The position numbers and the translations under genes were made by a program. This document shows, one piece after another, positions 17,697 to 20,131 of a stretch of 31,491 nt of DNA (positions within the stretch are counted from its first letter, which is position 1; every line of letters starts with the position of its first letter). Under the pieces are notes generated by a model that was given only the letters and a program-made list of their open reading frames with translations, ran no database searches and was not told the origin of the DNA. The DNA is from an uncultured Bacteroidota bacterium (GTDB lineage: Bacteria; Bacteroidota; Bacteroidia; Bacteroidales; UBA12481): NCBI GenBank assembly GCA_903832165.1, contig CAILAQ010000043.1, positions 1 to 31,491 of the forward strand, given 5' to 3'.

Positions 17697-19253
17697 TTAC
17701 CGGTTTTCTGTCTCAAGGTTTACACGGACTCCGTTAATTTTGACCAACGCATCATTTGCATAGACGTACGAAATGACAACGTTACCTTCCGTGTCAAAAA
17801 CCCACCAGTTTTTGTCCCTCAGCCCCATGCGATAATTTTGTTCTTCCCTGATTTTTCCATTCTCGTAAAAGAGCTTATGCTTTCCGTCGGGTAATCCCTG
17901 AACATAATTTCCTTCGAACTTCACCACCCCATCAGCATAATATTCCTTCCATATACCATCTTTCAAACCTGCCTTATAGGAACCCTTTTGCGTAATATTT
18001 CCGATTTTATAGATCCACGCCCCCTCCTCAAGTCCTTCAATATATTCACCCTGAGCCAATACCACGCTATTCTCATCATATTCCGTGGATAAGCCATCTT
18101 CATGGCCGCGGATATAATTTTCCTCCCTCCGCAATACTCCGTTTGGAAAATACCAGGTCCATAAGCCGTCTTCCATTCCATTCAGATAATTACCTGTCTG
18201 CTCCGGTTTACCATCAGTATAATAAAATTTCCAAACCCCTGAACGTTTATCATTCTTGTAATTTCCCTCTAAACGGACCTGACCACCGGCGTAAAAAAAC
18301 TGCCAGAATTCCTCCTTGGTGCCCTTTTCATCGGTGACTCCTGCCGATATTACCTGACCGCTGTTGCTGAACTCCTTAATCTCCACTGTTGCCTTTCCCG
18401 GCTGATATTTCCGGTGCGTGCCTACAGGAATAGTATTCAGATAGCTGCCGCTCTTCAAAAGATTGCCGGTGCTGTCATATTCATTTTTTATTTCTGCAAC
18501 GATCTCCTGATTTCCGCCGCTCTCTATAAGCTTGCCGTTTTCGTAGAATTTGGAGGAAATAAGTTTTCCAGCCTGACTGTATTCGCGGGTGTATCCGTTC
18601 AATACCCCGCTCTTGTAATTTTCTTCGGTGCGTATATTGTCGTTTTCAAAATATTCTCGCCATACCCCCTGCTTAATTCCTTTATTATCAGTCTGATTAA
18701 TAAATTCCCTGTCGATAAGAAAATCATTGTGATATTTATAAACAATCTGTACTATCCCATGGATCAACTCGCGGGTTAACCCCTCTTTCTTGCCATCTTT
18801 GTACCGGACGATTCGCTCTGTTTCACCCTGCTTGTTATAATAGGTTGATAGTCCCTGTTTCTGATTATTCAGATAAAGTTCTTTGAACAATGGGACCGCT
18901 TTTAAAATATCATTTTTATTAATAATCTGATATTTAGTGTGATATCCACTTCTTTTTCCATCGAGATAATTGATTTCCTCCGTCAGAAAACCCTGCTCAT
19001 CATAAAATTTCCAAACGGAGTCGAGTTGAAAATTTCTTCGGTTTCCTTCTGATTTTGTTTTCCCGTTAATGTGATAGGAAATCCATTTTCCATCAGGTTT
19101 ACCCTCTTTGATCATCCCCTCGCTGGAAATCTGCTTGTTGCCATAATACAGTTTCGTGTAACCATCAGCCATATTTTCCTGGCCGTACAGTCCGTGACTG
19201 ATCAGAACAAAGAGGAGTGCTATTCCGGCACCCTTTACTCTCTTTATTATCAT
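17697..19253 (-). CDS. Large exported MORN-variant repeat protein
   Basis: Signal peptide; many G.W..YY.xG...EG.Y..G repeats throughout. Confidence 0.8.
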   Translation of the reverse strand: MIIKRVKGAGIALLFVLISHGLYGQENMADGYTKLYYGNKQISSEGMIKEGKPDGKWISYHINGKTKSEGNRRNFQLDSVWKFYDEQGFLTEEINYLDGKRSGYHTKYQIINKNDILKAVPLFKELYLNNQKQGLSTYYNKQGETERIVRYKDGKKEGLTRELIHGIVQIVYKYHNDFLIDREFINQTDNKGIKQGVWREYFENDNIRTEENYKSGVLNGYTREYSQAGKLISSKFYENGKLIESGGNQEIVAEIKNEYDSTGNLLKSGSYLNTIPVGTHRKYQPGKATVEIKEFSNSGQVISAGVTDEKGTKEEFWQFFYAGGQVRLEGNYKNDKRSGVWKFYYTDGKPEQTGNYLNGMEDGLWTWYFPNGVLRREENYIRGHEDGLSTEYDENSVVLAQGEYIEGLEEGAWIYKIGNITQKGSYKAGLKDGIWKEYYADGVVKFEGNYVQGLPDGKHKLFYENGKIREEQNYRMGLRDKNWWVFDTEGNVVISYVYANDALVKINGVRVNLETENR

Positions 19254-19690
19254 TATAGTTTTTATATAAATCTGATGATAATAATAATAGCCTGTTAATA
19301 CTGTTGATAAGTCAGAATTCCGGATGAAAAATCCACTATAATACGCGGAATTTCAGTTTATCAGCAATACAAAAATAGACAAAGAGTTTTGTGAATACTA
19401 TGTTGATTGCTTTTTGTATCTGATGAAAAATTTCTCTTGCATTTATAATTTCAAATTTTATAGGAGCAGCAGATGATACGATGCAAGTGAAAAAGTAAGT
19501 TTTTTTTGTGCAGATATCAGAATGGGGCTGTTGATAACCTTTATGATATTTTATCTGTTGATTCTTTGATGTTTGAGTGATTAGAATGAATTTAGACGGG
19601 AAATATTCAGACACCTTTTCGTTAAATTGGGCCTGATAATGAGTCAATTTAGATCAGTGTTAACAAAATATTAAAATTGTGGAAAAAAAA
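19254..19690. other. Putative chromosomal replication origin (oriC)
   Basis: Minus strand of 19261-19310: TTATCAACA-GTATTAACA-GGC-TATTATTATTATCATCAGA-TTTATATAAA (tandem DnaA boxes, GGC, trios, AT tract). More boxes at 19358, 19529, 19678. GC skew flips here and flanking genes diverge. Confidence 0.75.
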
Positions 19691-20131
19691 ATGTTCGAAA
19701 AGATAGGTTTGGCATGCGATCATGCAGGTTTTAAAATGAAGGAATATCTGCGCATTTGGTTAATAGATGAGGGTTACGCAGTTATGGATTTTGGATGCAA
19801 TTCATCAGAGAGCTGTGACTATCCTGATTTTGGACATCCGCTGGCCGAAGCCGTTTCCAATGGATCCTGCACAGTCGGAATAAGCTTGTGCGGAAGCGGC
19901 AATGGCATAAATATGGTTGTTAACAAATATCCGAAGATTAGATCAGCCCTTTGCTGGAATAAGGAGATTGCCAGCCTGGCCCGTCGTCATAATGATGCTA
20001 ATATTTGTGCATTACCTGCCAGATTCATTACGCCGGGCGAAGCTCAGTCTATTTTACAGGAATTTTTAGAGACCGGTTTCGAAGCCGGGCGTCATGCCCT
20101 CAGAATAAAGAAAATTCCTCTTAATTATTGA
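19691..20131 (+). CDS. rpiB: Ribose-5-phosphate isomerase B
   Basis: IGLACDHAGF.MK, DYPDFG, LCGSGNG..MVVNK...IRSALCW, ARRHNDAN, F..GRH..RI.KI. Confidence 0.95.
   Translation: MFEKIGLACDHAGFKMKEYLRIWLIDEGYAVMDFGCNSSESCDYPDFGHPLAEAVSNGSCTVGISLCGSGNGINMVVNKYPKIRSALCWNKEIASLARRHNDANICALPARFITPGEAQSILQEFLETGFEAGRHALRIKKIPLNY

Follow-up and report, generated by a model that had tools for sequence, protein, structure and literature searches.

A probable DnaA-dependent chromosomal origin with a box/trio unwinding module between a MORN-repeat gene and rpiB in an uncultured Bacteroidales bacterium

Architecture of the intergenic region

The window analysed here is a stretch of 31,491 nucleotides (31.5 kb) from an uncultured lake-water Bacteroidales lineage. 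It contains an intergenic gap of 438 bp between the start of a gene for a secreted MORN_2-repeat protein and the ATG codon of rpiB, which encodes ribose-5-phosphate isomerase B (Table 1). Both genes are transcribed outward from the gap. With a GC content of 28.6%, compared with approximately 46% for the contig, the gap is as AT-rich and as divergently flanked as the original prediction had described it. A search of the gap against Rfam gave no credible match.

Table 1. Coordinates of the genes and sequence features at the locus (positions in the window).
Feature	Position	Strand	Remarks
Left flank, secreted MORN_2-repeat protein gene	17697..19253	-	Pfam PF07661, E = 5e-36
AT-rich tract, candidate DNA-unwinding element	19241..19272		Almost pure A+T; overlaps first codons of MORN gene (ATG 19251-19253, minus)
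Intergenic gap	19254-19691		438 bp, between MORN gene start (19253) and rpiB ATG (19692)
Putative DnaA-trio tract	19273..19290	+	5'-TGA TGA TAA TAA TAA TAG-3' = 3'-GAT AAT AAT AAT AGT AGT-5'
CC spacer	19291..19292		Counterpart of the BUS 'GC-rich gap region'; (G/T)NC in relatives
Weak trio-proximal DnaA box	19293..19301	-	GTATTAACA (plus strand TGTTAATAC), 3 mismatches to TTATCCACA; TGTTRAWAN in relatives
Strong DnaA box	19302..19310	-	TTATCAACA (plus strand TGTTGATAA), 1 mismatch to TTATCCACA; invariant in genus
Box-like TTATCAGCA	19358..19366	+	Opposite orientation to other boxes; TTATCAACA or TTATTAACA at same place in congeners
Two weak box-like 9-mers, TGTGAATAC (19390) and TGTTGATTG (19401)	19390..19409	-	2 mismatches each; block kept in genus alignment
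Second perfect TTATCAACA box	19529..19537	-	Plus strand TGTTGATAA; TGTTNATAACCT kept in 10/10 aligned congeners
Weak box-like TGTTGATTC	19556..19564	-	2 mismatches; partly conserved
TTTTCCACA box (TGTGGAAAA at 19678)	19678..19686	-	1 mismatch; just upstream of rpiB ATG 19692
Right flank, rpiB	19692..20131	+	Pfam PF02502, E = 6e-52

Read on the plus strand, the module at the left end of the gap consists of an AT-rich tract, a period-3 tract, a spacer of 2-3 bp, a weak box and the strong box TGTTGATAA, in this order. The minus strand of 19261-19310 had been given as TTATCAACA GTATTAACA GGC TATTATTATTATCATCAGA TTTATATAAA and the trio tract on the plus strand as TGA TGA TAA TAA TAA TAG. Both readings agree with the letters, and the tract is followed by CC TGTTAATAC TGTTGATAA.

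We compared the module with published rules for the basal unwinding system (BUS) (Richardson 2019; Pelliciari 2021, PMC8287927). These require a DnaA box with at most two mismatches, often with a weaker second box adjoining, and a short gap. The second tandem box is optional and may contain up to four mismatches, the upstream box being the better match. Three or more trios centred on an adenine have to follow on the correct strand, no more than 16 bp from the box; the spacer measured from the better box peaks at 10-13 bp with a mode of 13, and 3'-GAT-5' is favoured beside the box (PMC8287927). Cryo-EM has identified the central adenine as the specificity determinant and showed a preference for 3'-GA-5' over 3'-AA-5' (PMC10721633). 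At the locus, TTATCAACA with one mismatch is followed by GTATTAACA with three, and the trios 3'-GAT AAT AAT AAT-5', which are the four box-proximal units of the tract, start 11 bp from the strong box. In BUS notation the site reads AATAGTTGT / CATAATTGT / CC / GAT AAT AAT AAT (AGT AGT). The proposed likeness to the Bacillus subtilis unwinding module is thus borne out in the order of the parts, the ranking of the boxes, the 11-bp spacer, the GAT-led trios and the AT-rich tract.

A nearest-neighbour scan identified 19241-19290 as the least stable 50-bp duplex and 19242-19271 as the least stable 30-bp duplex of the whole 31.5-kb window, with a dG of -47.4 at the minimum compared with a mean of -67.2 (sd 4.9). 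The least stable duplex therefore directly adjoins the boxes, as would be expected for the easily melted AT-rich element of an oriC; in Bacteroidota relatives the AT content at the equivalent position is 84% or more. At 19244-19287 the trio tract (ATGATAATAA) and the initial codons of the MORN gene (TTATTATCAT, minus strand ATGATAATAA) make up an imperfect palindrome around a TTTTTATATAAA core, so that trio-like triplets lie on both strands beside the AT core.

Further box-like 9-mers had been predicted at 19358, 19390, 19401, 19529, 19556 and 19678, and all of them are present at these positions. Their frequency was evaluated by counting TTATC[A/C]ACA-type boxes in the gap and in 3000 dinucleotide-preserving shuffles of it. 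Two exact boxes were observed where 0.03 were expected, and 13 boxes with at most two mismatches where 5.4 were expected. For at most one mismatch there were five boxes against an expectation of 0.55; of these, TGATGATAA at 19273 lies within the trio tract and is probably no box. In any mismatch class, the observed number was reached by at most 10 of the 3000 shuffles. The gap is also the top-ranked 450-bp box cluster of the whole 4.9-Mb assembly, and the only site in it where a box with at most one mismatch is accompanied by at least three canonical trios (5'-TA[A/G]-3') within 16 bp. The tandem-box pattern has one match each in genomes G000, G018, G011 and G003, and a longer module pattern has one match each in five further Bacteroidota genomes. 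The locus thus combines a box cluster above chance with a single copy per chromosome and conservation in relatives, as an oriC should. AT-rich intergenic DNA readily yields TTATC-like 9-mers and TAA repeats, and a resemblance to an origin might in principle arise by chance; the shuffle tests and the uniqueness of the site in the genome speak against this.

The TTATCAACA box variant is not confined to Bacteroidota, since triple tandem boxes of the CTGTTGATAA type (…CTGTTGATAACCTGTTGATAATGTTGATAAC…) occur in a conserved context in Clostridia (Congzhengia and Oscillospiraceae records; loci L181, L184, L193, L197, L199, L208-L210, L227 and L229, and further L231, L234-L236, L238, L242 and L248).

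Conservation of the module and its genomic context

A DNA search of 40 relatives showed that, outside the genus, the module is the only intergenic part that still matches. Aligned across 19 relatives, it shows hardly any variation, in contrast to the freely diverging DNA on its right. No fewer than five additional box-like elements keep their place within the genus, among them the second perfect box at 19529; the box at 19678..19686 is kept only in the three closest relatives among those aligned that far. Scanning one genome per species revealed many Bacteroidales records with the same layout, Paludibacter MAGs included, and public records carrying the module are labelled Proteiniphilum, Porphyromonadaceae or Bacteroidales. 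Por_Secre_tail and further markers assign the organism itself to Bacteroidota.

A degenerate tandem-box pattern was rejected for mapping this distribution as too unspecific: it occurred in 77 of 301 genomes of the order (approximately 105 matches), only about twice the approximately 45 matches of the reversed control. Such a background also lends some weight to chance resemblance, but the near-invariance of the module across genera amid diverging flanks effectively refutes this explanation, and we regard its probability as negligible.

The claim that the tract is built of 3'-GAT/AAT-5' trios was only partly confirmed. It applies to four units in the present genome, but to just one or two in congeners. 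Where the canonical register accommodates one or two units, as in G018 (…ATGATGATAATGATAG CC…) and other congeners, a shift of two bases brings all units into agreement with NAN and makes the spacer 13 bp. A strict scan for canonical trios, which found the module in its own genome, accordingly missed it in G018, G006, G005 and G025. Among 34 distinct Bacteroidota sequences of the same layout, the motif A-T-R is repeated five times, with frequencies of 0.71-0.79 for A and 0.79-0.91 for T, counted only at positions left free by the search pattern. On the sequences compared, the kept feature is a five-unit A-T-R period-3 tract and not strict GAT/AAT.

As the original prediction had proposed to check, the module was found to be conserved upstream of rpiB in relatives, and adjacency to the MORN gene and/or rpiB extends over several families. 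This adjacency is also compatible with a divergent promoter or operator: the TGTTGATAA-type repeats would then be bound by a transcription factor distinct from DnaA and acting on the MORN gene and/or rpiB. The position of the site between divergent genes, the overlap of the AT tract with the MORN start codon and a TAnnTTTG-like -7 element of rpiB near 19616-19625, kept in congeners, all fit such a role. On the other hand, in G025, which belongs to another family (39% GC, JAQTZA010000003.1), the module lies between nadA and an unrelated plus-strand gene with neither the MORN gene nor rpiB near, and in G039 rpiB is located 21 kb from the module. These contexts argue that the module is not a MORN/rpiB operator. 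Moreover, the repeat is a DnaA box with one mismatch in exact BUS spacing and polarity, it is present in single copy in each genome searched and it coincides with long-range skew switches (see below). A promoter or operator is therefore a very unlikely explanation. The AT-rich gap beyond the module of G025 contains extra TTATCAACA boxes.

The sequence at 19616-19641 (TTAAATTGGGCCTGATAATG) is kept throughout the genus, as TAAATTTG in most congeners, and resembles the Bacteroidetes -7 promoter element (TAnnTTTG) for rpiB, placed inside the origin region.

No dnaA gene adjoins the module, as had been stated. An intact dnaA is located on another contig of the same genome (C135) and not on the 31-kb contig, and no box cluster was found beside it. 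In the closed genome of G018, dnaA lies at 3.671 Mb (L027, G018:C1:3,671,287-3,671,772), approximately 2.51 Mb from the module on a 5.38-Mb chromosome. The rpmH-dnaA-dnaN context of dnaA-linked origins is thus absent. In Bacteroidetes oriC is commonly far from dnaA (PMC4755523, citing DoriC), and an origin away from dnaA follows a known rule of this group and is not new. The dnaA gene of G018 is situated approximately 50-130 kb from the terminus-type skew switch of this chromosome (3.7-3.8 Mb), almost opposite the origin (see also L065-L067, L087 and L088).

Strand composition around the module

The assembly consists of 955 contigs, the longest of which is the 31-kb window, and the skew evidence comes from this window and from contigs of relatives. 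Within the window the cumulative GC skew reaches its minimum at 19.0-19.5 kb, at the module. In G005 (contig C3, 200 kb) the contig-wide cumulative minimum lies within 1-2 kb of the module, and in G006 (contig C2, 521 kb, of which 400 kb were read) the raw minimum falls in the 2-kb bin adjoining it. To separate the coding effect, a replication term was calculated as the third-codon-position skew averaged over plus- and minus-strand genes. For G006 this term stayed below zero in each 60-kb window between 60 and 280 kb and was positive from 260 to 440 kb (one window being near zero), with the switch at the module. In G025 (contig C20, 218 kb) the skew is uniformly negative over the 200 kb on the left, has its cumulative minimum approximately 4 kb from the module and rises over the last 16 kb. 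At short range, the analysis covered 15 Bacteroidota loci with flanks of 1.5 kb or more on either side; at 12 of them the skew within 3 kb was negative to the left and positive to the right, a result which is partly driven by divergent gene orientation.

The skew minimum expected at the module was hence found in three relatives (G006, G005 and G025), while the picture is ambiguous in G018 (OW818688.1), a closed congener of 5.38 Mb with the module at 1,161,475. Sampling the skew of this chromosome every 100 kb located a terminus-type switch at 3.7-3.8 Mb and an origin-type switch somewhere between 1.1 and 1.5 Mb. A continuous reading from 0.9 to 1.52 Mb showed a sharp local minimum at the module, but the deepest minimum lay 280 kb from it, at approximately 1.44 Mb. 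Most genes from 1.16 to 1.44 Mb are oriented head-on to a fork leaving the module. The replication term changes sign three times, from minus to plus at the module, back to minus at approximately 1.3 Mb and to plus again at approximately 1.44 Mb.

The block of G018 from 1.28 to 1.44 Mb (L042, L043 and L096-L101) is collinear with G006, and its genes have a third-codon-position GC skew opposite to that of their G006 orthologues; it gives rise to the second, deeper cumulative minimum. A simple inversion relative to G006 was ruled out, as the block is collinear and flanking inverted repeats are lacking. An alternative origin at 1.44 Mb was likewise rejected: at or near this position neither a box cluster nor a BUS-like site was found, only REP-like hairpins. 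Replichores drawn from the module measure 2.59 and 2.79 Mb, compared with 2.31 and 3.07 Mb from 1.44 Mb, a balance that mildly favours the module. More speculatively, the discordant block could be the mark of a recent change in how this region replicates.

The hairpins at the second skew minimum of G018 form a run of ACCCCTAAAGGGGT-type repeats (L102:5840-6320, corresponding to 1,445,840-1,446,320). Short REP-like repeats gave many extra matches across the genomes of the congeners in the comparisons of G018 and G006.

An additional exact copy of the 18-bp tandem box (TGTTAATACTGTTGATAA) is present in G006, 91 kb from its putative origin (L155:5282-5299, G006:C2:365,282). This copy directly follows a coding region, has neither trios nor an AT tract, and is absent from the genome to which the window belongs. 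It may be a secondary DnaA-binding site.

The deepest minimum of G018, 280 kb from the module, and the trio-less box of G006, by which tandem boxes are seen to occur outside the module, would both be understandable if the gap were a DnaA-binding locus other than the origin. It would then serve titration or regulation in the manner of datA or DARS, or DnaA control of the flanking genes, with the true origin elsewhere, for example at the equivalent of 1.44 Mb in G018. Trios next to an extremely unstable AT-rich tract are, however, the layout of an unwinding and not of a titration site. In addition, the module is present once per genome, the 1.44-Mb position lacks a box cluster or BUS-like site, and the skew minima of the long contigs of G006, G005 and G025 coincide with the module. 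A datA/DARS-type locus would be expected to lack an unwinding module and to lie apart from a skew switch; the gap differs from this in having trios and the least stable duplex and in its coincidence with skew minima in the window and these three relatives. We consider such a non-origin function unlikely.

Proposed function and significance

We conclude that the gap most probably serves this Bacteroidales bacterium as its DnaA-dependent chromosomal origin (oriC), as originally predicted. This reading is supported by the architecture of the module, its uniqueness, its duplex instability, its conservation independent of the flanking genes and the coincidence of skew minima with it, seen in the window as well as in three relatives. 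It is mainly the skew discordance of G018 that keeps our confidence from being higher.

By analogy with B. subtilis, DnaA binding, unwinding and initiation would all take place at the module. DnaA-ATP would dock on two adjoining boxes, the strong one (TTATCAACA, 19302-19310) and the weak one (19293-19301), and would oligomerise over the 2-bp spacer onto the plus-strand trios (19273-19290), capturing one strand. DnaA on the trios would then promote opening of the unstable AT-rich tract at 19241-19272. The boxes between 19358 and 19686, whose positions are conserved in congeners, may assemble the remaining DnaA complex. The forks would subsequently exit both ways, co-oriented with the divergent flanking genes.

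The basal unwinding system of B. subtilis comprises DnaA-box 6/7, the DnaA-trios and an AT-rich 27-mer (PMC6669920, PMC8287927, PMC10721633). Both sites have the same order and polarity, namely a strong box, a weaker box, a short G+C spacer, trios and an AT-rich tract. They also share 3'-GAT-5'-led trios on the strand bearing the 5'-TGTGGATAA-3'-type boxes, with the better box upstream. They differ in the box variant, which is TTATCAACA with A at position 6 in the present locus, and in the spacer, which is 2 bp here and 4 bp in B. subtilis. Most trios of the present locus are 3'-AAT-5', with a central G in the distal units; work on B. subtilis has shown 3'-AAT-5' to be less efficient than 3'-GAT-5' (PMC10721633). 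Finally, the module is not placed between dnaA and dnaN, and it is predicted from sequence.

Among Bacteroidales, the predicted oriC of Prevotella intermedia OMA14 (PMC4755523) likewise combines a box cluster with a GC-skew transition and lies far from dnaA. It was obtained with Ori-Finder using Escherichia coli boxes on a closed genome, and no unwinding module was described, whereas the present origin is predicted in a MAG of 955 contigs with support from relatives. The predicted BUS of Prevotella ruminicola 23 (Table S1, PMC8287927) comprises an upstream box AATAGTTCT (TTATCAAGA) and a second box, a 4-bp gap, eight trios and a 12-bp spacer; it shares with our locus the layout and the A at box position 6. 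In the same table the entries for Paludibacter and Tannerella (both with ACAAGGTGC) and for Bacteroides helcogenes have other 'standard' boxes and low trio scores, unlike the clean module that the present genome shares with Paludibacter MAGs. A literature search with the sequence of the box variant returned nothing on Bacteroidales origins. BUS-type box/trio modules are already predicted for Bacteroidales (PMC8287927), and the locus is very probably an oriC of the kind usual in this order, well supported and equipped with a canonical box/trio module. The known origin mechanism is unchanged by this finding.

A possible generalization, which we put forward only tentatively and hold to be rather doubtful, is that the TTATCAACA tandem box together with the five-unit A-T-R tract represents the unwinding module of the whole order. 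If this were true, published origin and BUS calls in Bacteroidales that rely on other 'species-specific' boxes, for example those of Paludibacter and Tannerella (Table S1, PMC8287927), may be misplaced. The G tolerated centrally in the distal units may then reflect a shifted or relaxed DnaA-trio register.

For this uncultured lake-water lineage the analysis provides a well-supported origin call and a signature composed of the AT-rich tract, ATGATGATAATAATAG, NC, TGTTRATAN and TGTTGATAA, which occurs once per Bacteroidales genome where it is found. The signature could be used to check automated origin predictions in an order with noisy skew, where the position of dnaA gives no guidance. It could also help to orient MAG scaffolds and anchor metagenomic estimates of replication rate (peak-to-trough).
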